NCBI RefSeq assembly: GCF_004010195.1
Contig: NC_057719.1
Coordinates: forward strand, 41,690,249 to 41,754,248
Length of the DNA stretch: 64,000 nucleotides
Source: Chiloscyllium plagiosum
Taxonomy: Eukaryota
Direction: 5' to 3'
The translations under genes and the position numbers were made by a program. Shown here in pieces: positions 1,949-62,585 of the stretch; position 1 is the stretch's first letter; each line of letters begins with the position of its first letter. A model generated the notes under the pieces. It made no database searches, was not told the origin of the DNA, and saw only the letters and a list, made by a program, of their open reading frames with translations.

Positions 1949-2062
1949 CAAAGAGCTGGAAATCAGAAATAAAAACAGAAATTGCTGGAAAAGCTCAGCA
2001 GCATCTATCAAGAGAAAGCAGAGTTAACATTTCAGGTCAGTGATCCTCCTTAGGACAGCAGA
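1949..2062 (-). mobile_element. Old PLE terminal-repeat-derived short insertion with decayed HHR; 16-bp target duplication
   Basis: ACAGTGCAAAAAGAAA at 1933-1948 and 2063-2078; internal gctggaaaagctcagcagcatc motif shared with other PLE repeats here; minus strand reads ctaagga...gaaatgttaac. Confidence 0.65.
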
Positions 2063-2739
2063 ACAGTGCAAAAAGAAAACATGTATTGTTAATCAAGGAA
2101 CATAGGTAAAGTTGAAATGAAAACATGAAACAATGAACATGCAGAGTGGATCTGAATGGAGAAAAATTGGCAGCATTTCAGGTATAATCCTTCATCTGAA
2201 TTTACTACTCCTGATTTAGGCTTACAATCAGAACTACTAAGCCCAGTTTTCCTCTTTTTGTTGTGGATTGACTTGCTGTGTCTTTCCTGCACTTCCTGCT
2301 TCATTTGGGATTTCCATCTCCTGCCTTTCTACATTCTAATGGGACCCCTGTCCTTCACAAACTGTAGAAGCTTTAACTGTACATTCTTTACCTATACAAG
2401 TCACACATTCTGTTAATGGGATCTTCATGGTCATTTGCTTGTTTTTCAACTCAATGGTTAATAGTGTTATGCTACACTCATAATAAAATGCCATGGCATT
2501 TGAGAATGAATTAGGGTTATAGGAATACTGTCAATATGTGATATAGGAAAGGCTGCCACGCAGAAAAGGCGCAAAATTTATTTCATACAGTACAGTGATG
2601 AACATTACATCAAACTCCTTAGTGGTACACATCTAAAGAATAATGTTACTCTTTAACTAACGTGCAAATGTGAATGAATACAGGATGTATCATTAACTTT
2701 ATTGTTACTGAATACTTGGACTGTATTAATTGACAATAT

Positions 2740-2754
2740 TGCCATCTAGTGGCA
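2740..2754 (-). promoter_or_regulatory. CTCF binding motif
   Basis: Minus strand TGCCACTAGATGGCA matches the CTCF core CCAC(C/T)AG(A/G)(T/G)GGC in non-repetitive AT-rich DNA. Confidence 0.55.
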
Positions 2755-3689
2755 GTATATTGAACAGTGCAGTGGGATAATTCTGTCTCAACTCATTTTT
2801 CAAATCAGTTGACAGCAAATTTGTCACTGAAAAGTAAATATCTAAATAGGACCTTTTACCTGGAGTTGCTGTAATAATTAGGGTTTACTTTGCATAATGA
2901 TATGTTTTTTTTCTGATTTCTCCTCAATTACTTCCAATTGATCTTTAAATTTACAATAACAATACCATTTTGACATTCTTCCCAAGTCCATTAATGCTAT
3001 TATGCTTTTTACACATGATTAACTTACTTTTGTGTCAAGTATTTTCCTGTACAACTCCTAATGGCTATATCTCAATGTGGTGACATGCAAACTTTGATAA
3101 TCTCTTTAAATGAAGACTGATTTCTTCCCTCTTATTGGTCAGCGAGCACAGATGCTGAAGGTGTTTTTAAATTGAGCTCCTGGATTTAAGTCAGAACTTA
3201 TTTTTCGATGAATTTCCAAATACACGAATGGGTGGAACCTTTGTGATGATATGATTTTGCTGGTGAGAGACTAACGCTGTGCGGTGGGAAGGTAGACGCA
3301 GGGTCTCCCTGCGTAAAGCACCATTCTGGTGGAGCAGGAGGGACAGTGGCATTCAGGTACAGCACACTTGGTCGAACTAAATGCCCTACCCTTCTCCCAG
3401 CTCGCCACAAGATTCCAGCAACAACACTGTTTTCTTCACTGCACTGATGATTAGGTGGAATTTTTCCCATTTCAGTTGAAGGGTTTTGTTGAGCGAGACT
3501 TGTGGCCCAGTCCATCATGGCACACAGTAGCATTTCTTGCACTGTCCACCTCAATAACTATACATTGAAGCTTGTCAGTGCTCCTCTCATGGAATTGTGG
3601 GTAGGATGCTTGCCACTGCTACTAGCTCCATACTTAAAGCCCAGTTGCACATCACTTCAGACCCACGTAAGGTGGTTCTTGACCATTAG

Positions 3690-3895
3690 CATTGTGGATA
3701 TGACCCAGAAAGAAAAGCTGGCAGCCAGTTTCTTGGATGGGCTGGTGATGGTGTAAAGGAGTAGAGTCTTCCTTCCAGCTGTTTGTCAGAGGGTGCCCCA
3801 CCACCACACGTTGCCAGTCTGGACCCAGGTGGTAGCCCAGAGCAGTGCCAGATTAAAAGAAATGGGCAGCAGTGAACGAAGAAGGTCACTGGATC
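3690..3895 (+). mobile_element. PIF/Harbinger Myb/SANT-like ORF remnant (continues near 4380-4400 after the Rex1 insertion)
   Basis: MTQKEKLAASF...LKRNGQQ*TKKV resembles the trihelix (R..QC+K+) motif of Harbinger ORF2; tctgccaag|gtaagt donor at about 4392. Confidence 0.45.
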
Positions 3896-3899
3896 AAGA

Positions 3900-12916: not shown

Positions 12917-13046
12917 AGAGAAAGTGAGGACTGCAGATGCTGGAGATCAGAGTCAAAAAGGGTGGTGTTGGAAAAGCACAGCCAGTCAGGCAGCATCTGA
13001 GGAGCAGAAGAATCCATGTTTCGAGCATAAGTTGTTCATCAGGAAA
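12917..13046 (-). mobile_element. PLE (Neptune-type) terminal-repeat fragment with decayed HHR (13011-13045)
   Basis: Matches the reverse complement of 16120-16250; minus strand reads ttcCTGATGAacaacttatgctcGAAACatggatt. Confidence 0.8.
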
Positions 13047-13764: not shown

Positions 13765-13844
13765 GTTTAGGCTATATCTCAGGATAGACTGTAAGGGGTG
13801 AATGGCCTTTTCCTAGTCTTGTGAAATGGGTTCTGACTATGTAG

Positions 13845-14499: not shown

Positions 14500-14737
14500 A
14501 AACACCTTCATCTGCTTCCCCACTGACCTATTGTACTCTATGCTACTCTATCCCCACCCCCCCCCTCCTCTAGCTGATCTCTCCACGCTTCAGTCTCTCT
14601 GCCTTTATTCCTGATGAAGGGCTTTTGCCCGAAACATCGATTTTGCCTGTCCTCGGATGCTGCCTGAATTGCTGTGCTCTTCCAGCACCACTGATCCAGA
14701 ATCTGGTTTCCAGCATCTGCAGTCATTGTTTTTACCT
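14500..14737 (+). mobile_element. PLE terminal repeat (solo)
   Basis: Pyrimidine-rich leader, HHR motif, then ggatgctgcctg...ccagcatctgcagtc tail shared with 16120-16250. Confidence 0.8.
14607..14642 (+). ncRNA. Minimal hammerhead ribozyme motif (one CpG-type change)
   Basis: attc-CTGATGA-A-GGGC-TTTT-GCCC-GAAAC-ATC-gatt; perfect stem II, with GTC changed to ATC. Confidence 0.7.
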
Positions 14738-15084
14738 CTAAATCATGACAGGGTTAGTGTTCTTGAGAACTTTATAGCTCGTGACATAGAGAAGGTTTTA
14801 AACAAAATAGTGGGGAAAGAGATCAATTGTGATCAATAGAAAAATAGAGACATGTTAAAAAAGGAAATAAGCAATATAGGAAAGAAGGGTAAAGCTATTC
14901 TGAGCAGGAAGGGGTACAGAGAGAAAACAAGACTACGCCAACAATCAACACCGGGGTCTGAATCTTACTTACTTTTGGCTAACTCCAAGTTACATCAAGT
15001 TTGTTGGAGGGGACCTAGTCACAAGACTCGATGAATTTTCTCACAGCATTTTACCAACCTTGCTGCAATGCACAAACAGCGATT

Positions 15085-16250
15085 TACTCCCAATTCCTTT
15101 GCCTCTGCTATATCTGCTTCCAGGAGGAGCAATTCCACTCCAGGACATCCTAGATGGCTTCCTCCTTCAAGCAATTTTCCCTTCCATGTGATCAACAATG
15201 CCTTCCGGCACATCTCCTCCACATCCCACACCGCCAACCTTGAATCTCACCCCTCAAACCACAACAAGGATAGAACTCCTCTGGTTCTTACCTTCCAACC
15301 CACCAACCTCTGAATATAACACATTATCCTCTGCCATTTCTGCCACCTACAGTCAGACCCCACCACCAGCGATATATTTCCCGCTTCACCCCTATCAGCA
15401 TTCCACAGAGACCATTCCCTCCGCGACACTGACATTAGGTCCATGCCCGCCACCAACTCACCCACCACTCCCGCCACCTTCCCTTGCTGCCACAAGCAGT
15501 GTAAAACCTGTGCCCACACCTCCCCCCTCACCTCCACCCAAGGCCCCAAAGGATCCTTCCACATCTGATAGAGATTTTCCTGCACATCCAAACACCTCAT
15601 CTACTATGTCCATTGCTCTCAATGTGGTCTCTTCTACATTGAGGAGACAGGACAGCAAATCATGTAACATTTCAGGGAACATCCCTGGGACACACACACA
15701 CCAAACAGCCCCATCGCCCTGTGGCAGACCACTTGAACTCCCCCTCCCACTCTACCAAGGACATGCAAGTCCTGGACCTCCTCCACCACCAAATCCAAGC
15801 CACCCAAAGCCTGTAGGAAGATTGCCTCATCTTCCACCTTGGGACCCTCCAACCACACGGCATCAATGTTGATTTCACCAGTTTCCTCATCTCCCCTCCC
15901 CCCACCTCATCGCAGACCTAGCCCTCCAAATTGGCACCACCCTCTTGAATTGTCCTATTTGTCCATCTTCTTTCCCTTTTATCTGCTCCACCCTCCCCTC
16001 TGACCTATCACCATCACACCCCACTCCCATCTACCTATCGCCTTCCCAGCTACCTTGCCCCCAGCTCCACCCGATCCCCTCCCATTTATCTCTCAGCCCC
16101 TTTCCCCCAACCTCCCAATATTCCTGATGAAGAGCTTATGCCTGAAACATTGATTGTCCTACTCCTCAGATTCTGTCTGACCTGCTGGGCTTTTCCAGTG
16201 CCACACTTTTGACTCTGACTCTCCAGCATCTGCAGTCCTCACTTTCTCCA
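15085..16250 (+). mobile_element. Penelope-like element (Neptune-type) 3' part: RT C-terminus, GIY-YIG endonuclease and terminal repeat with HHR (16124-16151)
   Basis: NKDRTPLVLTF.P; CCHKQCKTC; FSCTSKHLIYYVHCSQCGLFYIEETG; LGTLQPHGINVDF; CTGATGA...GAAAC in the terminal repeat; multiple stops. Confidence 0.92.
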
Positions 16251-17878: not shown

Positions 17879-18106
17879 CCTCAGGATTAGAGTGGTGCTG
17901 GAAAGGCACAGCAGGTCAGGCAGCATCCGAGGAGCAGGAAAATCGATGTTTCGGGCAAAAACCCAAGGGCTCCCATTAAATTTCCTGTTTAACTGTTCGT
18001 GGTGGATAGCATTCTAATCATTATAAAGCTGCCTGACCTACTGTGCCTTTCCAGCACCACTGTAATCTCGACTCTAACCTCCAGCATTTGCAGCACCCAC
18101 TTCTGC
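17879..18106. mobile_element. Fold-back PLE terminal-repeat insertion with 12-bp target duplication and captured host DNA
   Basis: CTTGTTAGAAGG at 17867-17878 and 18107-18118; inverted arms of the PLE repeat. Confidence 0.85.
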
Positions 18107-19189
18107 CTTGTTAGAAGGTCTGTCGCAACTTCTGGAACTGGGTTCCAGTTGCTTTAGAAACTGCTAAGGCTTCAAGCCCTCAACACTCACACTTATCCTA
18201 CCCAATCCCTCATATGTCATTCCATCTTTCCCAGGCACACCCCATGCTTTTGCATGCTTGTCATACCACCAGGATTCACCAGGGGCAGACCTCTATCTCT
18301 ACTTCACCAAATCCGATCTTTCAAGGTCACATTTAGTTCCCCTTACATCCATCTATGTTATTCACTGCAATTGTTCCAAGAAGTTCCATTTTCTGACCAC
18401 TCTCGGAATTCTTAGGTAATGGTGGTTTTTAACTGAAACAATGAGCCAGAATTTAGCTGAGTCACAAAGGTTCTGCAAACCTTTAACTTTGATGGGCAGG
18501 ATTCTGATGAAATTTACTATTGAGACAGCCACAGGGCTGAGACTAACTAATGGTAGTAAAAGTGCACTGTGACTTCTTTTCGCATGGGCAAGAATGTCAC
18601 AACAGACTTTAACTTGAGTAGGGATGTTTATTGAATTGAAAGGGAGTAGATCTATTGTGTATATTTAATGCACAGTAATTGAACTAGCTGTTTGCATAGT
18701 GATAAAGATTTCACGAATCTTTAATATTGATGGGCAGGACAAGGATGCAAAATTCTGCTCCCACTTCAGACAGTTCCAATATTCGTCAGAAGGGGAAGGG
18801 TAGGGCATGAGTCATACAGGCAGGAAACACAAACTCATGAGGACCACTTGAGTTAGTACTGACAGGCCCCATTTTGGCTGTTCCAATGGCTTTAATCTAC
18901 ATGTTGGTACACTCAGTTGGCGAGACAGCTTGTTTGTCAAGAATTCCTCAACTATAAAGGTCTGGCAAATATTATGGCACTGCATAATTAAAATAATTAT
19001 AGCAAAAAGAAACATGCTACAGAGAGAAGGAAAACAGAAAATGCTGGAAATACTCAGTACGAGCGGCAGCATCTGTGCAGAGAGAAGCAGTGTTAATGTT
19101 CCAAATCAATAATCGTCTGTCAGATCATTGAAGGATGAGATATTATTGAGTGCTACCATGCATTCCTGAAGCTGAGGTTCATGAAAATA

Positions 19190-20399: not shown

Positions 20400-20740
20400 T
20401 AGCAGTACAGATGATACTAATGTGAGGTGATTGGTTAAGAATAAATTCCTGAAGAAGGGCTTATACCGAAACGTTGATTCTCCTGTTCCCTGGATGCTGC
20501 CTGACCTGCTGCTTTTCTTTTCTAGCAACACATTTTCAGCTAAGAATAAAGCAAGACTAGATAAACCTGTTGTATGAATAAACAGGAGTGTCAGACATCC
20601 TGTTCACTCTAACAAACAACAAAAAAAGAAAAACCAACAGGAGTGTCAGACATCCTGTTCACCCTGAGAGCTGCCTCTGAGGGAGCTGGAGCAGTGTGAA
20701 GGATTTTCCATTTTGTGTTAGGGAGGGGACTGACTCTAAA
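20400..20740 (+). mobile_element. Decayed LTR-like repeat related to 58737-58965, interrupted twice
   Basis: ctgttcaccctgagagctgcctctgagggagctggagcagtgt matches the reverse complement of about 58800-58850. Confidence 0.5.
20446..20540 (+). mobile_element. 95-bp PLE mini-insertion starting at an HHR motif (20449-20475); 10-bp target duplication
   Basis: TAAGAATAAA at 20436-20445 and 20541-20550; CTGAAGA-A-GGGcttataCC-GAAACGTT. Confidence 0.8.
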
Positions 20741-25935: not shown

Positions 25936-26091
25936 GAGAAAGTGAGGACTGCAGATGCTGGAGATCAGAGCTTAAAAATGTGTTGCTGGAAAAGCGCAGC
26001 AGAGGGGGAGGAGAGCTTCTTAAAGGAAGGCATCCTTGCAAGAGGATTCGCAGTAGGTTAAAATGCTTTTCCAGCAACACATTTTTAAGCT
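25936..26091. mobile_element. Fold-back PLE mini-insertion; 15-bp target duplication
   Basis: TTTTCAGAATGATGG at 25921-25935 and 26092-26106; perfect 27-bp inverted arms 25969-25995 and 26065-26091. Confidence 0.85.
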
Positions 26092-26689
26092 TTTTCAGAA
26101 TGATGGTCTTCTGTAAGACTTGAAAATCACTCACCTGAAGCGCTGACTTTGTTTCACTCTCTATAGTTGGACCCTTACCTGAGCTTTGCCAGCCTTTTTT
26201 GCTTGAATTTCAGATTTTCAGCTTCTAAGGCAAATAGACTTTTGTCCTATTGTAATCATTGTTGGAAATGCTTGTCAGCTCTAGAATGAAATATTCTTTA
26301 TTTTACAAATTGAACTGTTTATAAAGGTTTTTTTAACAGCCTCAGATTATCTCCAAGTGCTTTATGGTTTGTGAAATATAATTCCTGTTACAATTAAGAG
26401 AAATATTGCAATCAATTTGCACACAGCAGATTTCAACAAATAATGAAATAAAGCAAATGAAATAATTTCTGTATAATTTGTTTTAGTGATAGTTGTTGAA
26501 GGACATTGGCCAGAACACTGAGGGACAATTCCCCTCTTGTTGAAAAATTGTTATGGAATCTTATACATCCAGATCTGAATGCATAATTACAAGTTTCATA
26601 TGGTAAATATGACCACAATATAATGCGCACCATGTATTGCATCGGCAAAAAGTAAAATTTGCTCTGAAACCATATGCATTGGTGAAGAA

Positions 26690-28310: not shown

Positions 28311-30539
28311 GTAGCTGTCATCTCGCGCAAGTGTTTATACTTCCTCGTTTGCCAACTGATCAGAGAAGCATGTGATCTATGTATTCCAGTAAAAGGAAAA
28401 AAGTCAGGAAAATACACATTATACTTGGAAAATTATTGTCATGTGTAGAATATCATTTTAAATGTAATGTATGCTTTCTGAATAAGTCATAGCAAACTCA
28501 AAATGTCAACTCTGTTTTTCTCTCTCTACAAATGCCAGACCTCCTGAGTTTCTTCAGCATTTTCTATTTTTAGTTCAGGTTTCCAGCATCTACAGTATTT
28601 TGCTTTTCTATGCCATAAGTAAAGGTTTTGTGGCACAGTGGTAGTGTCTCTATCTCTGGGTCAGAAGTTTTGAGTTTAAGTCTTGTATCATAACATCTCT
28701 GAATAGGTTGATTAAAATTTGATTTTTTAAATATGTTTTCACTCCAGAAGAGAAACTCTTGTTAAAGAAATACTGCAACAGAAAGGCATGTAATGCCCTT
28801 AAACTGGAGCACAGCTTCCATTAAACAAAAACACCTTTGCAATATTTTATTTCATTTTTAACACCAAAAGTCAATATTTGGTTTTGCTTTTTGTCAGAAA
28901 AGCTATTTTCTATGTGAGTGGAGAGTGAAAGTTTTGAAAGCAAACATCCTGTTTCCCACCTTAATTGTTCTTACATCTCACTGCTCAGTATATTCAATGG
29001 AACATCACAGGGTGGTGCATAAATATGCAAATTGTGGTGAATGCAAGAACTGCCAAGGCGATAATTGCCACTATACTTGTGCTTTAAAACATTTTTTTCT
29101 TTAATATCCTGAAGTTTGAAGGTAATACAGTGTTGCATTATATATTTTGCCTTGATTATAATGCATTCCACAGTGTCTTGATCATTTATAATGACCAGAA
29201 TGGTTGGATTATGATTTTTTTCCTCTGTATTTGAACAGTCTTAGAAAGCTCCCTGCAGAATGGATTGGATAACCGGGAATGCTGGTAACTTTCGACCAGA
29301 TATTCAAAAGACAAATTCAGTCCTACATTCGTAGGAATTAGGCAAAGATATTGGAACAAATAGTAATTTGTTGAAAAGGAAATCTCTGAACTGTAACCCA
29401 TCTGCGCTCATTAATGGCGAACATGTCTATTTTCACCAACTTCATACAACAGGGCGACATGTTCTGGGTATTTGCTCACAGTATTGTTCTTTGTTGGTCT
29501 GAGTGCTTGTGAGAAAATTGTAAACAGCAGTTTATGCATTACTGATACACACTAGAGGCAACTCAAACCATCATTGTAAAAAGTTTCCAATTTAAATGAA
29601 AATTTTAACACATTTCTGACCTAAATAATTTACAGAACTGATTTATTCCTAAAATAATGTTTAGTCATATCAGCAAGCAAGGCAGGACCTTCAAAGAGAA
29701 GAATGTGAAAGTCAGTGTTCTGTAATCAGCAATCCAATTGTTACAAGATTCTCATGATACTTGGACAACCAATCACAACACTGAGACTGATTCCACAAAG
29801 TTTTTTTCAAACTCTACAGAAGTGCTCGGTCCCTGTTTTCTCTGTGCTGTCGCATTTATTGGCATGATGAGAATTTGGGTTTATACAAACTCCTTTATTG
29901 TCCTATGTCCTACGTTATGGTTTTTGAATTATTTAGGACAGCACCAGTAAAATATTTTTGAACTGCTGTAAACGTTCAGGTCAATTAAACTTCAGTGAGT
30001 TTAGCTGGGAATTTGAATTGAATGAAAATGTTGGAGATTTGTTATAACAGTGTTTGATTGTATAAACATTGTCAAGATTCACTTTGAAGGATGCCTAATT
30101 CCTGATGAGTACTGTTTTTTGAAACCATGGGAAGTGAGCACAGACAGGATTATGGGGTCAAGTGATGTGTAAGATAGTGGTTCTGAAAGACTTAATGCTG
30201 AAGACGACATTAAACTCAACCAATTTGATGATTCAGTAAAGATGTGGGGAGGGAAAGGCGGAAGAACCCTGGATCTTGAAGGAGACAAATCCACTTTAAA
30301 GGTCTCATCATAGTGTTTTTACAATGTCCATGACACCAACATTCATTTTTATTGCTGCCATGTGATAAAATATATCATGCCTTAGACAAGAGTCTGTTCT
30401 GTTCACCTTGAGGTTTGCTTCTACTACATTCGACAAAACAGGCCCTGTGGATCCCAACTGAAAAAGAATATATAGCAAATATACCCTTTGGGTGACCATA
30501 CAAAATACTCTTCGCATTGGTCCCCTGAAGATTTAGTTT

Positions 30540-30724
30540 GAGTCAAAAAAAACCTGCAGATGCTGGAATCCAAGGTAGACAAGCAGGAGGCTGGAAGAAC
30601 ACAGCAAGCCAGACAGTATCAGGAGGTGGAGAAATCCTGAAGAAAGGTTACACCCGAAACGTCGATTTCTCCACTTCCTGATGCTGCCTGGCTTGCTGTG
30701 CTCTTCCGGCCTTCTTGTCTACTC
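30540..30724 (+). mobile_element. Palindromic PLE mini-element with central HHR; 12-bp target duplication
   Basis: AAGATTTAGTTT at 30528-30539 and 30725-30736; arms 30575-30636 and 30664-30722. Confidence 0.88.
30626..30674 (+). ncRNA. Minimal hammerhead ribozyme with extended helix I
   Basis: GTGGAGAAATC-CTGAAGA-A-aGGT-TAC-ACCc-GAAAC-GTC-GATTTCTCCAC; the closing pair of stem II is an A.C mismatch. Confidence 0.75.
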
Positions 30725-42600: not shown

Positions 42601-43637
42601 CCAATATTTCCCCGGTTAACACTGTTGTTTCTTATTTCATACCCTAAAAATACTTCTGTCTCCTCTCTCTCGGCAACTAAAGCCTTCTAGTAATCTACAC
42701 TGCGTTGATGCCAGTGCCAAGTAGACTTTATGTTTTCTGTGTTCCACTTATTCTTCAGCTTGATCTCTGCACCATATAGCTTAGTGCATGAGCCCACATA
42801 ACTGCTCCACTCCACATCTCCCATGTCCATACTACCTACTGCCTGTTGTGTTCCTCATCTCCCTATCTAAACCACAAACTGACTTTCCATAAATAATACA
42901 GGGAAAGATTCACTAGCATCTATAAGACAAATGCAAAAGTCCAAAACGTAATTTATGACCATGTCCTGCCATTGTTATTAGATTTCAGCATACATTAATA
43001 TTTGAAGTTAAGAGTAACTGCATTAATCAGTACACTGCAAAATGAGGACACATGAGTTAGGAATGTAAATTGCATACATCAGGTTAATCTTGTTTTTGCT
43101 CATTCATGATTGGTGATGGGGAATCAAGCCCTATTATGTGTTACATATATACAAGTTCTAAAATAGAAGAACCATTTATAATCCTCAGGCAGTTATTCTC
43201 AGGTAATGTTGATTCATAATTTATATTTCTACCAGTGACGACTGCATGCTGTTTAGCTTCACATTCTAATGTGACTATTAAGAAAGTTTTTCCTAATTAT
43301 TTAAAGTAAGCTAGTTGATACATCAAAACAGAACATGGAACATAGAACAATACAGCGCAGTACAGGCCCTTTGGCCCTCGATGTTGCACCAACCTGTGAA
43401 ACTGATCTGAAGCCCATCTAACCTACACTATTCCATTAAAGAACATAGAACATTAGAGCGCAGTACAGGCCCTTTGGCCCTCGATGTTGTACCAACCTGT
43501 GGAACCAATCTGAAGCCATCTATCCTATACTACTCTATTTTCATCCATATGTTTATCCAATGACCATTTAAATGAACTTAAAGTTGGCGAGTCCTACTGT
43601 TATTGTGGTTCTGTTCGCCGAGCTGGGAATTTGTGTT

Positions 43638-43677
43638 GCGGACGTTTCGTCCCCTGTCTAGGTGACATCCTCAGTGC
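43638..43677 (-). ncRNA. Minimal hammerhead ribozyme (minus-strand copy)
   Basis: GCA-CTGAGGA-T-GTCACC-TAGACA-GGGGAC-GAAAC-GTC-cGC. Confidence 0.72.
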
Positions 43678-43796
43678 TTGGGAGCCTCCTGTAAAGCGCT
43701 TCTGTGATGTTTCCTCTGGCATATATAGTGCCGGAGGAAACATCACTATAAATGCCGGAGGAAACATCACAGAAGCGCTTCACAGGAGGCTCCTAA

Positions 43797-43836
43797 GCAC
43801 TGAGGATGTCACCTAGGCAGGGGACGAAACGTCTGC
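43797..43836 (+). ncRNA. Minimal hammerhead ribozyme, intact core
   Basis: GCA-CTGAGGA-T-GTCACC-TAGGCA-GGGGAC-GAAAC-GTC-TGC; helix I GCA/TGC, palindromic ACGT helix III, GUC triplet. Confidence 0.8.
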
Positions 43837-46800
43837 AACACAAATTCCCAGCTCGGCAAACAGAACCACAACAACGAGCACCCAAGCTACAAACCTTTTC
43901 CCAAAATTTGAGTCTACAACTGTTGCTGGCAGGGCATTCCACACCCCTACTACTCTGAGTAAAGAAACTACCTCTGACATCTGTCCTATATCTATCACCT
44001 CTCAGTTTAAAGCTAAGTCCCCTCATGCTAGCCATCACCATCCGAGAAAAAAGGCTTTCACTGTCCACCCTATCCAATCATCTGATCTTCGTGCATGCCT
44101 CTATTAAATCACCTCTTAACTTTCTTCTCTCTAATGAAAACAGCCTCAAGTCTCTCAGCCTTTCCTCATAAGAGCTTCCCTCCATACCAGACAACTTCCT
44201 GGTAAATTTCTTCTGCAGTCTTTCCTATGCTTCCACGTCCTTCCTATAATGCAGCAACCAGAACTGTGTGCAACACTCCAAGTACGGCCGCACCAGAGTT
44301 TTGTACAGCTGCAACATGATCCTATGGCTCCGAAACTCAATCCTTCTACCAATAAAGGCTGACACACTGTACACCTTCTTAAACAAATCTATCAGCCGAG
44401 TTGGCAACTTTCAGGTATCTATGCACACGGACACCAAGGTTTCTGTGCTCATCCACACTACCAAGAATCTTACCATTAGCCCACTGTATTCCTGTTACTC
44501 CTTCCAAAGCGAATCACCTCACATTTTTCCACATTAAACTCCATTTGCCACCTCTCAGCCAAGCTCTGCACTTTATCTATGTCCCTCTGTAACCTGCAAA
44601 ATCCATCCGCACTGTCCACAACTCTACCAATTTTGGTGTCATCCGCAAATTTACTAACCCATCCGTCTGGGCCCTCATTCAGGTCATTTATAAAAATGAC
44701 AACCAGCAGTGTCTGATCTTCGTGCATGCCTCTATTAAATCACCTCTTAACTTTCTTCTCTCTAATGAAAACAGCCTCAAGTCTCTCAGCCTTTCCTCAT
44801 AAGAGCTTCCCTCCAAACCGGACAACTTCCTGGTAAACGTCTTCTGCAGTCTTTCCTATGCTTCCACGTCCTTCCTATAATGGCCCCAAAACAGATCCTT
44901 GCGGTACACCACTAGTAACTGAACTCCAGGATGAACATTTCCCATCAACCACCACCCTCTGTCTTCTCTGATATGTTAATTTTAATTAACATACCTTTTT
45001 GATAATACTGTCTAAGCTGAGAATGACTTTAAATCTGTATAGTAATTGAAGCAGTTCATAATGGACGATTATTATGTCTCATTATTCTTGAGCATTTAAC
45101 AGTGATTAACCATGTCAAGTCAGAGGATTCAAGGCTCTGGAGCTGTCCTCTCAGTTCAGATGTACACCAATCAGTGCAGTACAGTTGAGAAACATGAGCA
45201 ATCAAGACATTAATCAAAGGCAAAGGAGGTAAATTGATTTTTACTCTGCTGTTAAAGCAATTGCTAGTTTACATTGTCTCTGCAGAACATTACATTCATT
45301 GGAAAATGTGCTTAATGACTGTATATAGCACAAAGCAGACATTCAGCAATAAATATTTCCCATTAGATATAAGTGAGATAACTCTATAAGTGAAGCTTTT
45401 CAAAACCCTTCTCCTATTCATGCCCTGAAGGCAGCAACTCACGTTGTTGAATCTGTTAATAATCATTAAATTGCATTTTTAAAGAAAATTATATGCTTTG
45501 TGATTAATATCATAATTGAGCCTGACCTCACTTTCTTTCTAGCAATATTATACTGGACATATACAATCATTTGAGGTTAAAATAGAGGTTGACAGGTGAA
45601 AATAAACATTTTTCATATTCTTGTCTGTGCTCCTTTTCCTTTTATCTACATGGGAGCTGTTGCTCAAATCTGCGAAGAGTCATGCTTGTGGATGATCACG
45701 AGGCAGAGCTTGTGGAGGTGGTTAAGTGATAAAGCAAGTGATAAAACAAAGCAATAAAGACAGTACAGTGACATTAAAGCAGTTATAAAACATACATTTG
45801 TAGGGACACATTTGTATCAGATTAGTTTACCAAGAATGATCTGAAAGCTTGAACTAATTTTAAGAGTCTGGCCTCAATATAATGAATGAATGATGCAAAT
45901 AGACGGATTTATAAGAGTGAAAAACTAAAAAGGACAATGCAATAAAACAGTTAAAGTGCTCCACTCAATAGGAACCATTAGCCAAAATAGGAGAACAGGA
46001 AATCCACAGGTGAAGATCATCATTTGGACCATTATTGAACTTACTTTTGTTTCTTTCCAATATCATAACAAAATGTTTTGGCTATTACCTGTTTTCTTTA
46101 AGACATGACATCCACTCATGACAACTTCTTTCAAAGCTTACTAATACTGCAAAACAAATGTATTACTCACACTATATTCAAAACATTTATTTAAAATAAT
46201 GTCCATTATGGTATTCAAAATTGCAAAGTCAAGGAAAAATTAATGCTAATAGCAATAGAGTTTTCTGCCTTTGGTCATCTTCAGCATCTTCGGTAATCAT
46301 CCAATTACTATGTAGATTAGTAAAACTTCAACCTCCTAATTGGTAAATGAACACGACCCCTAAATGTATCAGTGAAATAATCAGATATAAAAATATACTT
46401 ATTTGTTTTATTGAGAAAAGTCATAAGTCTATAGTCATTGATTAGCAGAGCACATAATTGCACTTCAGAATGGGATGCAAACTGAAGAACCCATTATAGT
46501 ATTTACCAATACACAAAAATATGTCTGATGCAGCAAAAAATCTTCCAAAATTAGTTTCTTATTTTAGACTCATTGGCAGAACTTGTTTTAGGGAAAAAGA
46601 CAATTTTGCCTAATTGACAGTTGGTTACTGCTTTTTTTATGGAAAATCAACACTCACTAACAGTCCTTTTCGTTTTCAGATCGAAATTTATCACTAAGAC
46701 AATGACAGTAATGTTTTATTGTGATGCTTAATGCTACCTGCAACCAAATTCTGCCCATGTTGTTACCAGTTTACAATGCTAATAGAGAAGTAAATAAACT

Positions 46801-52290: not shown

Positions 52291-52498
52291 CTGATGAAGG
52301 GCTTTCACCCGAAACGTCAATTTTCCTGCTCCTCGGATGCTGCCTGACCTGTATCACCTGATGAAGGAGCAACACTCCAAAAGCTAGTGTGCTTCCAATT
52401 AAACCTGTTGGACTACAACCTGGTGTTGTGTGATTTTTAACTTTGTACACTCTAACCTGGACTCTGATTTCCAGCATTTGCAGTCCTCACTTTTGCCT
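52291..52498 (+). mobile_element. Chimeric PLE mini-insertion: one terminal-repeat family nested in another, with two HHR motifs
   Basis: CTGATGA-A-GGG..CCC-GAAACGTC at 52291-52318; CAC-CTGATGA-A-GGAG..CTCC-aAAAGCTA-GTG at 52355-52389; first family resumes at about 52451. Confidence 0.82.
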
Positions 52499-52559: not shown

Positions 52560-53580
52560 GAGTAGTCAGTCAGGTGGCAATTGCTGCCACATGGCCCCCC
52601 TGAATGGAGTTGGTCTCCCTGACTCCCATTTCCTGAGGATGAGTGAGGTGTCATGTAGACGCAGGCTTCGTATGGCTCAGGGCACTGTGATGGTACTGTA
52701 TTGGATGTTGCAGAGGGATCGAAGAGCTGGAGAAGAGGGAGGCCATCCTTTCCCAGTGGTTATGAAAGTCACTGTGACATTAAATGTCTATATGACTGGC
52801 TCCGTCCAGGGAGCAACAGGAAACCTCTGCAGAATCTAGCAGTTGAGTTCTCCCAAATGCATCAGGACAATGACACCTGTATATAACCACCCCGGGTCAT
52901 TTGATTCTCCCGATACTAGGGTCAGTGATGCAGACCGGGCCCTGGGATTCAGGATGCAGGGCGCCATTCGCTGCTCACGTGTGGCACTGATGAGACATAT
53001 CAGAACCCTACAGAATTCACCAACAAGACGGGATTCCATTCCATTAATGGACATGACAAATGTGATCACCATTACACTTCCAGGAGGTGTGTGCCCCTTA
53101 CCTTGGAAGCTGCCATGACTTATAAATACCAGAACATTCGCAAGTACCTGGTGTATTTGAGGGTCCAAAGCAGACTGCAGGAGGACAAGAGATACTCTCT
53201 GTAACCAGGGCTCATGACTTCTTTGCGCAGCCCCCAAACTGAGGGGAACACAGATACAGAGCTACCCAGGCTTGATCTAGGGCCATTGATGGGCAGACGA
53301 TAGGGCTGCTGCAGATGTGGTTCTGCTGCATGGAGCGTTCTGGGCAAGCCCTCCAATATAGTCAGGACAGAGAGTGCTGCATCATCTGGTGTGCTTTATT
53401 CAGCAAGATTGGAGCAGGCAACAAGGCCATGTGCTGGATGCTGAGCAATCAGGGAGATGAGAGGAGCTTACCAAGGAGGAGAGCGGGGAGGAGAAAGCTG
53501 GCATTACCCATATCAGAACATGCCTGGTACTATGGGCCAGGCAGGACAGGATTGATTCCCACTTCCAGTAGGTGAGAGCT
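52560..53580 (+). mobile_element. PIF/Harbinger DDE transposase (HARBI1-like) remnant
   Basis: GHPFPVVMKVTVTLNVYMTGSVQGATGNLCRI; MQGAIRCSRVAL (GAIDCTH); GFHSIN; YLGSCHD. Confidence 0.85.
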
Positions 53581-53799
53581 GGGTGCAAGGAAATTTGAGG
53601 ACTACAAAATATTTTTTGATCATGTTGCCAAAAAACCAATATATGTTGTGGGTGTGAGCTTCAGTCTTTTGCTGCCTGTAAATGGAAGCTCATGTTTATA
53701 TTTGTCTGATTCCTTGTCTGAATGTGATGTTCCCTTAGAATTTACAGTACAGAAGGAGGCCATTCAACCCATCCCGAAAGAAGTACACAGCTTTTGTTT

Positions 53800-54108
53800 T
53801 AATTCATTCACAAGATGAGGCATCGTTGGCTAGACCAGCATTTATTGCCCATCGCAGGTGGCAGATAAGAGGCAACCATTTTGCTGTGGGTCTGGACTCA
53901 CATGGAAACCATTTCAGGTGAGGACGGCAGTTGGGTGTTTCCTGACAATCAACAATGGATTCATAATCATCATTAAGCTCTTCGTTCCAGATTTTTATTG
54001 AATTCAAATTCCACTATCTGCCATGGCAAACTTGGGTCCCCAGAACATTACTTGTGTCTCTGGATTAACAATCCAGTGACAATACCATTAGGCCATCATC
54101 ACCTCCCC
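53800..54108 (-). mobile_element. tRNA-head SINE with CR1/L2-type tail (older copy at about 42200-42480)
   Basis: Minus strand ggggaggtgatg.ggcctaatggtattgtcactgga...gatgggcaataaatgctgg. Confidence 0.75.
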
Positions 54109-54774
54109 TAATCTTACTGACTTGCCAAGATTAGGGGAGGTGATGACCTAGTGGCATTGTCACTGGATTGCTTGTTACCTTGTCAAGATTGTTCATAATT
54201 TTGAACACCAGAAAAAAGGTCACCTCTTAATCTTCTCTGCTCCAAGTAGAATAAACTTAATTCCTCTGAGCTTTCCTTGTACCTAAAAATCGCTCACTCC
54301 TCACATTATTCTAGTAAATCTCCTTCACACTCTCTTCAGGGCTTTAGCCTTAAAGGAGGAGCACAGAACTGAACAAAAAACTCCAAATGTGGTCTGACCA
54401 ATGATTTGTAGAGGCCTCTACTGGACAGTGATGAGCTGCAGGTCTACAGTTGGTTATGGGGACAGGGTAGCACTGAGATAGAGGGTGTTCAGGCAGAATG
54501 TAGCTAGGAACAGGTAATGTGTGTGACCTGGTGGTTACGCAGCGAGTAGGGTGTTAGTAAGGGATTGTATGTAAGAGGGAGTGTTAGTCATGTCATCTGT
54601 GTCATGGGTAGAATGGATTCTGGCTGCTTTGCCAGTAAGTGGGCAGTGAGGGACAATGTCGGATTGCCAGTGCTTATTTGGGTGTACAGAGGCCTTTAAA
54701 AGATGATGTGGGTGCATGGCATGCTGATTTCTGCTGGAGCAGTATTCTCTCTGATTTTCTTTCTGCCTGCCCAG

Positions 54775-54897
54775 ACTTCCAAGGTCAATGAACGCAAACA
54801 ACTTCCAGAACCGTGTGCAGATGCCGATTGCTGAGTGCGGAGCCTTACAGCAGTTGCGCATAGCCACACAGCTTCGAGAGAACATTGCTGCTGAGTG
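54775..54897 (+). CDS. Candidate 123-nt internal coding exon of an unidentified gene
   Basis: Long polypyrimidine tract plus ccag; TG|gtaagt donor; length divisible by 3; only one frame open (LPRSMNANNFQNRVQMPIAECGALQQLRIATQLRENIAAE); six CpGs retained. Confidence 0.5.
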
Positions 54898-57800
54898 GTA
54901 AGTTGTTCTGAAAATGATGGAGCCAGAATCGAGCATGAAAGACATCACTGAGGCAGGTAATTCATGTAATGAGTTTGGGAATGTGCAGCTAGAGAACTTA
55001 CTAGGCCATGTAGCAAATATCCCTCCCAAAAAACTCAATGCAATTCAAAACAAATGTAAAGATTCAGCTTCTAAAACACAGAACACACTCTACACACCTT
55101 TAAAGAAATTCCAGCTTTGCCTAACTGTACTGCTTCCAGGTTGATGTTTGTCACCATATAAAATTAAGCTGCACTTTATCGCCCTTGAAAAGATGTGTCA
55201 CTCTCTCAATCTAATTTGTTTGCTCTCTCTTTCCCTCTTTCATTCCCTTTATGAAGCTAAAGATCATTATAGGAATTGATGTGTCCTACCCTGCCAAACC
55301 GTAACCCAGAACAAAGTGTTTCTTAGAAGTGCATATAGTTTTGTAAAGTTAATCAATTTATGAGACCAAAATTCTATGTATGTAAACTACGAAAAATACA
55401 GATGTCTATGTGTACAGAAAAGTATCATTAATCTGTCAGTTGTTAAGGAGATTTGTGGGCATGGATTTATTTTTATATAAATTTATGGCAAGTAACACCA
55501 GGGTTAAAGAACTTCGCCCTTAAATAAACAGATAACTGAGCTCTGAAGTTAGTTCAGCTGAAGAAAGTACTATGAAGCAGCTTTGCTCAATCTCTCTGCA
55601 ATGACGGAAGAATTAGGTAAGTTCCTTACAGTGCCTTCAACTTGTACAAGACATGCTGAATTTATAACTTGTTTTCTGCAAGAAATGCATTTTGATTTCA
55701 TAATTGTATTTGAAACTTTAGTTTTAAAGCATTCTGATGTTACACAGTTGGGATATTTTTATCAAATAAAATTTGAGTTGATTATCTCATACTTCATTGC
55801 AGGCGCAACTTTACATTTCATTTTTTATGATTGTTCAACGTAGATTTCAAATAATGACTTGAAGTGAACATTCAATAATTCAGACACTAAAGTTAATTGT
55901 GGTTAATACAAAATGTATTAAATGATTATGGTTAGCTTTCCTGGACCCAAATCTCTCTGGTGGCCTCAGCAACTTTGCATAGTTTAGCTGCTTTCAGGTT
56001 GTGAAATCTTGACGTATAGATTTTCTATTATTATGGATATAAAATGAATGTATGCCTGTAGTGCACACGAACATTGTAAGCAAACTTTAAAGGCATTATT
56101 TAATCTCTCATGGCATTACACAAGGGAGCCAAGGCATTGGACTTTATAAGTCAAGCAGAGTTAACAGGTTAGTCATGGCTGCTTACAGATTTCGAAAGAA
56201 TAACAGATGAGCAAAGTCTTTCTCTTGCCTCCGCCTCCATCTCTTTCTCTTATATATTCCTGCTTGTGTCTGTCTACACCAGACGTATCATGAGAATTGA
56301 TGTTATTTTTGTCTCACTCTCACAAACATTCACAGGAATGTCACTGGCCAGAAAATCATATGATCTTTAAAAGTCTTATCAGCAGATTTCCTCTGCTTTG
56401 CTCATTGTCAACAAGAGAATTATATGGAGGAAAACACTTTCTGTACTCAATAGTATGAGTAAGGAAGTCCTATTAAAACAAGATAATTTATATTCATAAT
56501 AGAGCCTTTTCACTAGTTATATTATGTCGAGAATAACTCTAAATCCATAGCGTTATCCCACTTCCTGCATTCTCCATCAGGGTAAATTAATCCCTTTGGT
56601 CAGGCTTTGCTAAAATGCTAAGCCCAATTTTAACCTACAAAACATCTAAGCTGAAATAGCTACAGCAATTTATCTCCAGTGTTCCTGCTGTTTTATTGTG
56701 GGTTGCTATCCTCATCTGTTTCTGAACAGGTGAGCATAACACCAAGCAATTGGCACAGGACAGCCCTTCTTTAAGGATGGAGATTTGCCTCCATCTTGAA
56801 CATTGAACTTGAGGCCTGTGTTAGTAAACCAGATCAGCCTAACAGGCAATAAAACTGATCCTGGGCCATGAGAGGTCAAGAGTCACAGGCTATTTAAAAT
56901 GTTTTTCTCTTTCCTTGTTGAGCAATAAGAGCAGGATTGCTCCCGTGGAGCCCAGGAAGGAAATTTGAGTTTTTCCTAACTTGAGGTCCCCTTCCCCATC
57001 CCCGATTGAGATATACTCTCAATTCCTCTCCTAAGAACTTAGTTAACTACCAGGCACTGTTATTGTACAATCTCAGTGATAACTTGAATTATTTTTGGGA
57101 TCCCCAAACTTTGTCTGCATCCTTGCCAGCTCGTTATTCCCACAGGATAAAAAATAAACAAGACTGCATTTCCTTGATACTGTGAGGTCTTACTGAGGTT
57201 GCATAGAGAGAAGCGAGTCATGTTTCACAATTGTAAACAGGAACCTTTCATTAACTATATGCATGACATACAGAGTTAGGTATGAGAGAGAACTCCTCGA
57301 ACCATGCTGGCTTTTTCCTAATTTCAAATGCAAGGGAACATCAGCAGACATAACGGGTCGTGTTTACTATTCATTCACCTAGCCATTATTCTACTCCTTT
57401 CTCAAGTTTTTTCTTCTTGCCCTTTAAATCACTATTATTTCCTATTAATATTTAACCAGTAATATTTCTCTTTACACCCATCCACACCCCCCTTCCCTCC
57501 CTTGCCAAACCTCCTTTTGACTCTGAATTTGTAAGCAGGTTAGGACATCAAGAGTTATTTCACAGGGAACGTTTGTGGGAGGTTTCAAATGATGTGTATT
57601 TAAATGACTGCCACAGACTGCACATGGATGTCCTTACCGATGAGGCAGAGGTCACATAACTACAGCAAGTCAGCCTGTGTACTAAGTGCATTGCTCTTCA
57701 AGCATTGCCCTTTTTTTTAAAACAAAATGCATACAATATAATTTGCAGTTACAGGTTATATGAGTTGTCAATGTACATGGTCACAGAAAGTTAATATTCA

Positions 57801-57969: not shown

Positions 57970-58077
57970 GGGCAAAAATGAGGATTGCAGATGCTGGAAA
58001 CCAGAATTTAGATTAGAGTGGTGCTGAAAAAGCATTGCCGGTCAGGCAGCATCTGAGGAGCAGGAAAATCGACGTTG
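57970..58077 (-). mobile_element. PLE terminal-repeat fragment truncated within the HHR, nested in a tRNA-SINE head
   Basis: gcagatgctggaaaccag...ggaaaatcgacgtt. Confidence 0.75.
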
Positions 58078-58339
58078 CCCAGGGTATGCAGTTTTGAGTC
58101 CCACCTACTCCAGAGGTGTGTGCAGGTGGTTAAAAAAAAAATAGAACTTGATGGTGACAAGTTAAGCAGTTGCTTTGTGAAGAGCTTCTTCCGTAGTCTG
58201 TCTGTGATGGTGCATGTCAGAAGTAGCTCTTTATAGCTTGGCTTGGAATTCAATAAAGCACTCAACTGGTTAATATGCTCCTTAATCTCATTACTCATAT
58301 TTAGCCGGTTGAATACTCTTTTGCCTTCCTCAGGTAAGT

Positions 58340-59250
58340 CTGAGTTCCTTGTGTGGACTATCTTCACAGCATCTCTTTCCACATCTTCCTAAGGATAATA
58401 ACTCTACTTACTTCAAAAAGATGACATCTTGAGCTTTAACTTCAACTTTCTATGTCCAATAGTCTTGCATAGCAAGAGGTATGTCTCAATGCTTTCAGAC
58501 ATCCTTTCATCACTACTTCCTGCAAGAGTTGCATCTCCTTGATAATTTGCTTGCTTTAAGTAAGACTTTCAGAGTCAATGTCTCTGCTGGATTGACCAAT
58601 ACATAGTAAACTGTTGCTTCTTATTGAATCTCAAACTGTCCTAGCATTCTAAAGTTTCTTTATAGGAAATGTATATCTGTTTTCCTTGTTTGTATATCAT
58701 GTCTCATTGATATCTCTGCAAATGAAATAACAGATATGAAATAAGTCCAAAGGCCAGTATTCCGTCACCTAGTCACCCTTTATTTTCATGTGGAGAGTCC
58801 TGGACACTGATCCTGCTCCCTCAGAGCCAGCTCTCAGAGTGAACAGAACCTCTGAGACTCCTCTTTATAACTGTCTGCCAGGGCTCCCCAATTGGAGCAG
58901 ATGAACAGCCCCACTCAGAGAACTCGTAATCCAGGAGATACACTTGACTTGTTACAATCACTACAAGACACTTTGTAACAGATAGGAGCAGTTTGAGGAT
59001 GGTGCTATGAAGTGGCCTGTATGTTATATCTTTTGGTTACTGCCTCACTGCTGCTACTCTTACCTTGCCAGGATTCAGGTGAAGTCTTTTTGCTGTCAGT
59101 ACACTTGATTTCAGGCATCTTCAATTGAATCTTAATCAGCTTCCAATTCATCTGGTAAGCTCTGTCTAGCATTTGCATTAGATTCTGATTGTGATTTGCT
59201 TGTTTTTTCTTATTGTGTTCTCACAAACATAGACCAACATATTATCCATA
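58340..59250 (-). mobile_element. Gypsy pol remnant A (RT, RNase H and linker)
   Basis: KLLLSVTKCL/..LFHLQRYQ*DMIYKQGK; LQEVVMKG...PLAMQDYW...SRVIIL. Confidence 0.7.
58737..58965 (-). mobile_element. Solo LTR
   Basis: Minus strand TGTAGTG...TTATTTCA with AATAAA; flanked by AGATA and AGACA; splits the Gypsy RNase H coding sequence. Confidence 0.75.
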
Positions 59251-60035
59251 CTAGCTTCACTCTGAGAAGATTACTGCCTACCTGGTAATGTCCATATTGA
59301 TACATTTCTGGAACTCTGGAAAAGTTAAACGGCTCACACCACTGTCTGAGTCTCCTGATAGGAATCCAGAATGTAGTAAGAGAAATTGGTCAAAAAGATT
59401 TTTTTTTTGTGTGTGTATATTGTAAAGGAGAGAAAGATGTAAAAAGGAAATTCCAGATCTGGAGGAACTTGGAGGGTTTTGACAGCTGGAGGAGCAGACT
59501 ACCAACATTGTACACCATTGAGCAACTAAACATTGATGATAATGCAGATGGAACTGCATTGTTTCAAATACCTCCATATGACTGGGTTATTGGGAACATA
59601 CTCTGGTCAAACCTCCAAATAGATCATACAGATCTTTACAAATTGTTCACCACATAACTGAGCTTCTCAACATTCCGGCATCTTCTTCAATATGGCTGAC
59701 AAGCAGTGAGTGATTATGGCTGTGAAGGTCTCAACTGCAAGAATGACATTTTTTGTCCTCGTCAGGAGTGTTGATAGAGCATCACTATTACTTTGTTGTT
59801 GTTCTTCTATGTACTCTATGATGGTTTCATATTGCATCATTTGCAAATTGAATCCCGGGACTCTTTACCCATTCTTTTGTGTTTAATAAAGTTATCAATA
59901 GCTTTTGGTCAGTTTCAATTCTGATCAGCAAACCTAAGGGGTAATCAAAGAATTTCTTACACAACTCTTCTACTGCAAATGCTTTCTTCTCATTAAAGGT
60001 ATGTGTTTCTTCTATATGTATAAGAGTACTGGAAG

Positions 60036-60383
60036 GAGAAAGTGAGGTCTGCAGATGCTGGAGATCAGAGCTGAAAATGTGTTGCTGGAAAAGCGCAGCA
60101 GGTCAGGCAGCATCCAGGGAACAGGAGAATCGACGTTNNNNNNNNNNNNNNNNNNNNNNNNNNNNNNNNNNNNNNNNNNNNNNNNNNNNNNNGGTTGGAT
60201 GGTTCCTAGGCGGAAGATGAGGTGCTCTTCCTCCAACCGTCGTGTTGTTGTGGTCTGGCGATGGAGGAGTCCAAGGACCTGCATATCCTTGGTGGAGTGG
60301 GAGGGGGAGTTGAAGTGTTGAGCCACAGGGTGGTTGGGTTGGTTGGTCCGGGTGTCCCAGAGGTGTTCTCTGAAACGCTCCGC
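60036..60383 (-). mobile_element. Young 5'-truncated Neptune-type PLE; 14-bp target duplication; contains an N gap
   Basis: AAGAGTACTGGAAG at 60022-60035 and 60384-60397; AQHFNSPSH...RRLEEEHLIFRLGT. Confidence 0.92.
60138..60192. other. Assembly gap
   Basis: Run of N. Confidence 1.
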
Positions 60384-61538
60384 AAGAGTACTGGAAGCAT
60401 AGTAAACTGGTCATCTGATCCCATCATGGATCAGAAATAAGACTGCTCCTAGACTTGTGGATGTTGCATCTCCACTATTACAGCTGGAAGAGCTGGGTCA
60501 TGATTTGCAAGTACCTGAGATGAAATGAGCATTTCTTTTATTTGATCAATCAAGTTTTGCTGATATTCACATCAATACCAGATCTGATCTCCCTTCAGAA
60601 GTTGTCTGAGATTCATTGGGCTAAATGAGGTAAGAATTTCCCTTCCTGGTTCACCATTCCCATGAACTGTTGGAATGTTGTAGTATTCGTGGGCGGTGGA
60701 AAGGTTATGATAGCCTCTTTGTACTCTAGAACTGCCATTTTTCCTATCACCTGAACCACATGGCTCAATAATTTGATTGTAGACTTGGAGAACTCATACT
60801 TGTCATTGAGTGACATCAAAGCATCCTGTAACTTATGCAACAAGATTCTCCATGCTGTCTTGTTATGTTGATCTTTAGTGGATCCGTAGTAGAGAATGTT
60901 GTCCATGTGACATGTAACACCTTTCATGCCTTCTTATATATTGAACATTGTCTACTGAAAACTCTCAGATTGAGGATATGACACCAATTTTGCAGGTGGT
61001 TAAAGCAATAATGTCTATGACAAGCTATGAATGTGGTGAGCAGTTTGATGTTCTCATTTAACAGAGATTTCCTGAAGCCACTGTTGCTATCTAACCTAGT
61101 GAAAAGTGTGCTCTGAGCAAGATTAATCAGGCTCTCATCTACAGATACCATTAGATATACTTCACAATGCACTGCAATATTCAAATGTATAAGACACACA
61201 TTTGAATAAAACGCTCCGTTCTGGGAAATGACACCATAACTGAGCACCATATCACCAGCTGATAGACTTTTGAAATCATTCTCTTCCTGAGCATTGTCTC
61301 AATCTTCTCTTTTGCCTTGACCAAGGTGGATGTGGATCCTCCCTGGGTGTGAACAAACACAAGGGTTTGGCATCTGCTTTGAGTATGACGTGATACACAG
61401 CACTGAGCTTTCTGAGCTATGAGAAGAGCTTCAGAAACTGTTATCTAAACTCACTGTGGTTGACTAGCTGACAGCTGTGTTTGCCTGAAGGATGAGGTTG
61501 AGAGCCGTTCAGGCTTTCCTACTAAGTTGTAGTTAAGT

Positions 61539-61682
61539 TGTTGGCTAGCTCAGTTGGTTGGATGGTTAGTTTGTAATACAGGGTGATGCTAACAATGTGG
61601 GTTCAATTCCTGCACTAGCTGAGGTTATGATGTGGGTCCCTCAGTTTAAACTCAGCAGCCTTTGGGATCATGGTGACTTTAT
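61539..61682 (+). mobile_element. Short tRNA-derived SINE (related copy at about 20200-20290)
   Basis: tagctcagttgg A box; gggttcaattcc B box. Confidence 0.6.
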
Positions 61683-62039
61683 TCTTAACTTAAATAGCTG
61701 GTTCTCAAAAATGTTCAGTATTTCCACAATTTGTCTGCCTTTGTGCCATAACATTTCCTAAAGCTAGCCATTTATCACAAGGTTCTATCATCCAGGGCCA
61801 AATTAGTTGGAAAGTTCAAGATGGAAGGTAACTTCTTTCAGCTATGTAAAGCCTTCTAAACAACAGAATAACTGCACCTCCTATATCCAAATAACATGTG
61901 TGTAGTATCCATTGATGGAAATCTCTGAGGTTCAGTGTTATCATCCTGGCCAATAATTTCTCTAACAGCCAGATTTTACATTGAAGGTGGGTCTTTTCTA
62001 CAGGATGTCATGTTTGTTTCTAAAGCAATCTTCTGTGAT

Positions 62040-62585
62040 CAGCGAGTTTTGAATACCGTGCAAGAACTGTAACAAACACTACATTGGACAAACAGGCAGA
62101 AAACTAGCCACCAGGATACACGAACATCAACTAGCCACAAAACGACATGACCCTCTGTCACTAGTATCCTTACATACAGATGAGGAGGGACACCACTTTG
62201 ACTGGGACAACACACCCACCTTAGGACAAGCCAAACAGAGACACACACGAGAATTCCTAGACGCATTCTTGAGCCATGTGGTTCAGGCAATAGGAAAAGT
62301 GGCAGTTCTAGAGTACAAAGAGGCAATCATAACCTTTCCGCCACCCATGAATACCACAGCATTCCAACCGAAACGCTATCAACAAACACATCGAGTTAGA
62401 CCCCATCTACCATCCCCTGAGAAAAAGAACATGAAATGACATCACCACAGGAAATTACATCACCACAGAAAATTACATCACCAACCCAAACATATAAATA
62501 GAAAGTAGGAATCATGTACAGTGCTTCGCCTGAGGCCCACTGAAGATGCTACCTAGTAGGGCTCAGCAAGCAAACCTACATCAAG
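62040..62585 (+). mobile_element. 5'-truncated Poseidon-type PLE (GIY-YIG plus terminal repeat); 13-bp target duplication
   Basis: IPCKNCNKHYIGQTGRKLATRIHEH...HHFDWDN...REFL; AATCTTCTGTGAT at 62027-62039 and 62586-62598; half HHR CTGAAGA at 62540. Confidence 0.92.

Follow-up and report, generated by a model that had tools for sequence, protein, structure and literature searches.

Minimal hammerhead ribozymes were described in metazoans by Cervera and De la Pena in 2014 as components of the pseudo-long terminal repeats (pLTRs) of Penelope-like elements (PLEs) (PMC4209133). In the covered part of that report, in which sharks are not named, the motifs consist of a type I core with an extra base between positions 9 and 10.1, a G10.1-C11.1 pair, a palindrome at positions 15.2-16.2, no loop III, and a short helix I. 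Several covarying families are found per genome, mostly as single truncated copies, with some close pairs on opposite strands. Single minimal motifs were not cleaved in vitro, and dimers were cleaved weakly. Endonuclease-encoding (EN+) PLEs of the Neptune and Penelope/Poseidon types carry, according to the covered sections of PMC8557442 and PMC11167929, a C-terminal GIY-YIG domain followed by a pLTR with a hammerhead and a short tail, and show 5′ truncation as well as inverted truncated copies at the 5′ end. Non-LTR (long terminal repeat) retrozymes are presented, in the covered part of a preprint by Li, Clavereau and Pollet (bioRxiv 10.64898/2026.07.22.740005), as PLE derivatives, also present in one chondrichthyan, that are non-coding, carry a pLTR-derived type I hammerhead, and form tandem arrays.

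The stretch considered here (the window) comprises 64,000 nucleotides of the Chiloscyllium plagiosum genome (assembly GCF_004010195.1, contig NC_057719.1, forward-strand positions 41,690,249 to 41,754,248), in which an initial annotation had named 14 hammerhead-type sites. We conclude, with a probability of about 0.8, that these sites are hammerhead-headed terminal-repeat stubs of several PLE families, and that the ribozyme likely serves the RNA of the parent element and is likely inert once inserted. The stubs belong to a known class and are ordinary for that class, remarkable only in number; what they add to it is their copy number and a negative strand test in introns.

All 14 named sites were found to be members of hammerhead-headed repeat families. 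Profiles seeded from core-bearing copies, five of them from the window itself, defined five families (A to E) and gave 19 hits in the window, including five additional ones at 18028, 19029, 25957, 26128, and 28492, whereas the same profiles gave no hits in 25 shuffled windows. The expected excess over shuffled sequence was also obtained with a strict descriptor free of family information, which found three sites, compared with a mean of 0.1 (maximum of 1) in 20 dinucleotide shuffles. No hammerhead family was matched in an Rfam search of the window at E-values up to 10. The sites had been called complete or decayed cores, and most of them are decayed. With completeness defined as a full core, a stem II of at least 3 bp, and the ACGU palindrome, only three of the 14 are complete: 43674(-), 43800(+), and 52291(+), the first of which had been placed at 43638(-). 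The palindrome is destroyed by G16.2>A at 14611, 16124, and 13042, the G10.1-C11.1 pair is gone at 30637, G12 is changed to A at 52358, stem II is shortened by a 1-nt deletion at 20449, CUGA is broken at 2025, and GAAA is missing at 62540. The core at 60128 is not readable, because an assembly N gap cuts the site. As for the complete sites, 52291 begins at C3 and thus lacks helix I, while 43674 and 43800 constitute the two arms of a 132-bp inverted repeat, which in context is predicted to fold as one long hairpin on either strand, with a stem II pairing probability of 0.0.

Base pairs were counted by motif anchoring, because MAFFT misaligned the families. The anchored copies (107 of family A, 9 of B, 37 of C, and 7 of D) were drawn from 570 copies found in 1.745 Mb of fetched DNA, a sample that is not random. 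The core, CUGANGA/GAAA/UH, is the majority state in all four families. The extra unpaired base between positions 9 and 10.1 is an A in 107/107 A and 37/37 C copies, and a U in 9/9 B and 7/7 D copies. The G10.1-C11.1 pair is kept as G-C in 84/107 A, 7/9 B, 24/37 C, and 3/7 D copies, the others being mostly G-U through CpG decay. The third pair of stem II, a stem that reaches 4-5 bp in A and C, is G-C in A, C-G in B, A-U in C, and U-G or U-A in D. The palindrome is ACGU in A, B, and D, and AGCU in C, with no loop III. Its positions 15.2-16.2 read CG in 75/107 A and 6/9 B copies, and GC in 32/37 C copies; in D the palindrome is kept in 2/7 sampled copies, though 1,122 exact copies of this family exist in the genome. 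Helix I has 3 bp in B, C, and D, with pairs that differ between them, and in A consists of 2 bp, a U-U mismatch, and an A-U pair. These counts confirm the between-family stem covariation from which a real RNA structure had been proposed. Family E yielded one anchored copy, its decay being excessive for counting; the listed copies look by eye as if they shared the fold. Judged by sequence, the motifs are the minimal type I hammerhead described for PLEs (PMC4209133), sharing with it the structural features, the covarying families, and the copy arrangement given above, and differing from it in a helix I of 3-4 bp and in a stem II of 4-5 bp in A and C. Side by side at 52291-52459, same-strand A and C stubs carry ACGU and AGCU palindromes, respectively, so that dimer pairing between these two is impossible.

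The initial annotation assigned the motifs to at least three PLE families, and the five families found exceed that number, four of them (A to D) lying downstream of GIY-YIG endonuclease remnants. Longer, near-identical copies of the remnant at 60212-60410 matched the Pfam GIY-YIG domain above the cut-off (E = 6.8e-5), and relatives of this remnant are followed by a same-strand family-A piece in 13/13 other loci, in 9 of them at 322-323 nt. Relatives of the remnant at 62053-62280 are followed by family D in 7/7 other loci. Family B lies behind a related endonuclease in 4/14 sampled copies, and family C behind a third type in 4/105 sampled copies (two of these hits being possibly one locus), giving three distinct types of parent endonuclease. 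A CX2-5CxxC-like linker was seen in A, and none in B and D; on these linker motifs, rather than on a reverse-transcriptase tree, family A may be Neptune-like, and B and D Poseidon-like. The arrangement, with its 5′ truncations and inverted truncated copies, resembles that of the EN+ PLEs of PMC8557442 and PMC11167929 as far as covered, and differs in that the clades here are motif-inferred, three endonuclease types are involved, and no intact open reading frame (ORF) was recovered. We propose, more tentatively, that many stubs could have been copied from the capped front end of the element RNA. The base preceding the family-A stub start is G in 10,206 cases and A in 4,524, whereas base composition predicts a ratio of 0.74 to 1, and this G excess would fit a G copied from the cap.

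The prediction of a very large genome-wide number of motifs was correct. Exact cores in 3.56 Gb amount to 98,236 for family A, 8,967 for B, 21,714 for C, and 1,122 for D, at least 130,039 in all, whereas reversed controls gave none. The 570 copies in the sample include 94 complete ones, from which a genome-wide total of some 1.2 million remnants may be extrapolated, with roughly 190,000 complete cores. The counts in the covered part of PMC4209133, obtained with a different descriptor, are about 9,000 for Xenopus, 4,000 for the coelacanth, and 2,000 for Schistosoma, and the copy number here is about 14 to 21 times the highest of the 2014 description, the methods being different. No publication with such counts or with a strand test for sharks was found in an incomplete literature survey that took in no supplements; those to PMC4209133 and the 2026 preprint may already contain shark motifs or counts. 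An apparent strand bias on contig C1, where only plus-strand family-A hits were listed between 1.62 and 2.95 Mb, was rejected as an artefact, since for this very common pattern with a variable gap minus-strand hits beyond about 1.40 Mb had been omitted from the list; exact minus-strand copies are present in the fetched DNA at 1,413,130, 1,648,924, 1,667,738, 1,738,388, and 1,751,827, and a further list contains additional ones.

The fate of inserted copies was followed in 173 family-A copies that cover both core and tail. At non-CpG positions, 80/1899 were changed in the core and 76/2403 in the tail (p = 0.07), the core being slightly higher. The CpG positions were changed, per 100 copies, 22 times at C11.1, 16 at G12 (the general base, according to the covered part of PMC6155905), 17 at C15.2, and 31 at G16.2, compared with 21 at one tail CpG. 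Core damage was alike on both strands (31/594 and 51/216 in sense copies, 27/605 and 53/218 in antisense copies). Inserted copies thus decay neutrally, led by CpG changes, and the covariation therefore reflects selection on the parent elements and not on the stubs. The decay data also bear on the idea that the host has domesticated some of the copies, on the model of the conserved intronic hammerheads found singly in amniotes, or that some replicate through RNA circles as non-LTR retrozymes. The high copy number speaks for it, as does the report of PLE-derived retrozymes in a chondrichthyan, with which the stubs share a non-coding, pLTR-derived type I hammerhead. However, the core decays at least as fast as the tail, and with no Rfam hammerhead match the copies do not resemble a RECK-type domesticated intronic hammerhead. 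Nor were retrozyme-type tandem arrays encountered in the 1.745 Mb sampled: among neighbours within 200 nt of each other, 14 direct pairs stand against 111 head-to-head pairs (and 6 tail-to-tail), and the copies are dispersed, single or head-to-head stubs with no intronic deficit in our sample. We regard this idea as extremely improbable.

The ribozyme load had been supposed to lie inside introns. No exon was detected in the window or in the 100 kb to its left by ORF, splice-candidate, and Pfam scans, and the window is probably intergenic, the data being also compatible with a non-coding transcript. A strand test was made on 1.153 Mb of introns, oriented by Pfam exon hits, from an ADAM gene, two dystrophin-family genes, three minus-strand spectrin-repeat genes, and a TMEM179-like gene; 200 kb upstream of the EF-hand exons on contig C4 and three unoriented stretches were omitted from this test and kept in the density counts. 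Copies were found in a sense:antisense ratio of 178:192 (confidence interval, CI, 0.43-0.53), core-spanning copies in a ratio of 120:115, and complete copies in a ratio of 27:29 (CI 0.35-0.62). Unpaired copies matter most, because head-to-head pairs are symmetric by construction, and these gave 88:99 for all, 63:57 for core-spanning, and 11:16 for complete copies (CI 0.22-0.61, p = 0.44, with weak power). Copy density was 321 per Mb in introns and 317 per Mb in the non-genic stretch around the window. A depletion of intact sense copies in introns was thus not seen, and the very large intronic ribozyme load of the initial annotation holds for the number of motifs but not for a working load. That annotation implies a model in which intact sense copies are harmful and purged from introns, and the unpaired complete copies lean in its direction, as does the modest under-representation of tandem retrozymes in Xenopus introns noted in the covered part of the 2026 preprint; against it stand the even ratios of all other classes, the like damage on both strands, and the equal densities. 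A strong purge is excluded, while a mild purge of unpaired complete copies is still compatible with the data; as an account of the stubs, purging is very improbable. The family-A tail (e.g., 14659-14686) resembles a 3′ splice site, with branch-point-like CTGAC/CTGAA, a pyrimidine run, and CAG, and was found 105:105 in introns. The exons of the ADAM metalloprotease gene (loci L044-L070, C1:1.452-1.663 Mb, plus strand) are scattered across more than 210 kb, and about 180 kb separate two of the detected ones.

Because the motif has no loop III, cutting would need two same-strand copies paired through the ACGU or AGCU palindrome. In the reading that we prefer, the ribozyme would act in tandem parent transcripts, where copies dimerise, whereas scattered stubs would rarely pair; for only 4/94 complete copies does another complete and compatible one lie within 1 kb on the same strand. 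A head-to-head partner would bury the motif in double-stranded RNA, and the three CpGs of the family-A core would inactivate it over time. Rare dimers, head-to-head burial, and CpG loss would together explain why host genes bear no detectable cost. Since most copies are damaged, and both orientations are equal in introns, the stubs are likely harmless leftovers. Between two head-to-head family-A pieces of the window, a 59-nt piece of flank (17490-17548) is copied inverted at 17973-18031, which suggests template switching at insertion.

The load may alternatively be working but tolerated: dimers formed at long range or between molecules would let the complete sense copies, of which introns hold about 23 per Mb, cut pre-mRNA, and exon tethering would save splicing. 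Complete sense copies are indeed present (22 of the 27 with at least three of four helix I pairs), ACGU is common to A, B, D, and E and would allow cross-family dimers, and, according to the covered part of PMC2995048, splicing can still succeed when a slow hammerhead cuts the intron. On the other side are the inactive monomers and weak dimers of PMC4209133, the failure of 8/9 Xenopus retrozyme dimers to cleave, the scarcity of nearby compatible partners, and, as weak evidence, RNA reads over 40400-49300 from some 2% of a single run, a shallow data set in which almost only repeats and no unique DNA were covered, with no pile-up of read ends. We consider tolerated cutting unlikely, and doubtful by a further degree in the particular form in which it proceeds through ACGU cross-family dimers. 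Several points nevertheless weigh against inert PLE stubs. Even orientation is no proof against cutting, because slowly cut introns still splice, and the strand test has weak power for unpaired complete copies. Family E was not tied to an ORF of its own. The four long frames fetched in place of an intact full-length parent ORF were gaps or tandem repeats. Finally, the G excess before family-A stubs could in part be a templated base of a subfamily.

The features of the window are collected in Table 1. Of the remaining sequence, 13476-13784(+) is a frameshifted, Pfam-blank frame, which we take to be a candidate remnant of a PLE reverse-transcriptase end. The family-A element at 60036-60410 is inserted within broken LTR-retrotransposon-like pol pieces (59827-61444, minus strand; weak RT_RNaseH match, E = 0.003). 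Several protein-like, Pfam-blank open frames at 52840-55840 and 58008-58388 are perhaps decayed DNA transposons. A near-perfect hairpin of about 100 nt (54067-54172) is possibly a miniature inverted-repeat transposable element or a pair of inverted transposon ends, with Rfam miRNA matches below threshold, and the miRNA matches of the window were dismissed as hairpins. A U6 match at 34904-35012 was likewise rejected (22 bits, cut-off 44), the repeat resembling a fragment of a long interspersed nuclear element. Minisatellites occupy 37384-38007 and 49580-50950, with units of 42 nt and 58-59 nt, respectively.

Candidates for a host gene, namely 37 long ORFs and 145 splice-flanked frames from 264 kb, gave only transposon domains or sub-threshold matches. 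To the right of the window, at a distance of about 66 kb, lies the end of a group of minus-strand exons, with an Atlas lead to TMEM179 at 0.80, which we take to be that gene; for the exons next to the window, the other PDB and Atlas look-ups gave one blank each. On the left, kinesin exons of the plus strand are about 770 kb away.

Table 1. Hammerhead-headed stubs and PLE remnants in the window (positions within the 64,000 nucleotides)
Position	Strand	Feature	Basis
1955..2048	-	Family E stub (old, A-related), decayed core	profile hit
12919..13045	-	Family A stub; mutations in G10.1 and in the helix III palindrome; faces the 14606 copy head-to-head at 1.56 kb	inverted-repeat listing, profile
14606..14735	+	Family A stub; intact core and 4-bp stem II, ACGU palindrome abolished by G16.2>A	
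15035..16118	+	Broken ORF end, presumably PLE, with C-x4-C-x2-C motif, then pyrimidine-rich pLTR into the 16124 motif	translations, sequence (PLE identity only inferred because Pfam blank)
16119..16248	+	Family A stub, CpG-decayed (C11.1>U, G16.2>A)	profile
17890..17964	-	Family A stub without CUGANGA	profile
18028..18097	+	Family A tail only, head-to-head with 17890-17964; initially overlooked	profile
19029..19118	-	Family E stub, decayed; initially overlooked	profile
20445..20545	+	Family A stub; intact core and ACGU, stem II reduced to 2 bp by a 1-nt deletion	profile
25957..26002	-	Family A-type tail only, best-scoring profile E; initially overlooked	
26128..26222	+	Family E stub, weak and decayed; initially overlooked	profile, E-value 1e-4
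28492..28587	+	Family E stub, decayed; initially overlooked	profile
30601..30710	+	A-subfamily stub, stem GGGU/ACCC with top G mutated, within fold-back; inverted copy of its own tail adjoins directly 5′	
43570..43679	-	Family B stub, complete core (start 43674); left arm of 132-bp inverted pair	
43795..43912	+	Family B stub, complete core, helix I GCA/UGC; right arm of inverted pair	
52291..52351	+	Family A stub from C3 on; complete core, without helix I	
52353..52459	+	Family C stub (AGCU palindrome), G12>A, immediately behind truncated A stub	
57973..58076	-	Family A stub whose start falls inside GAAA	profile
60036..60137	-	Family A stub cut by N gap	profile
60212..60410	-	C-terminal part of GIY-YIG endonuclease of family-A parent	Pfam, via near-identical longer copies
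62053..62280	+	GIY-YIG endonuclease remnant, family-D parent	Pfam, E 0.0084, under cut-off
62538..62598	+	Family D stub; GAAA and helix III deleted	

The even orientation of the copies in introns suggests that vertebrate genes can carry tens of complete hammerhead motifs per Mb at no visible cost, which agrees with motifs whose activity is confined to dimers in the RNA of the element itself. Whether such motifs cut in cells could be addressed on the large sample that this genome provides, and cross-family cutting, if true, would amount to a genome-wide natural experiment on splicing across severed introns.

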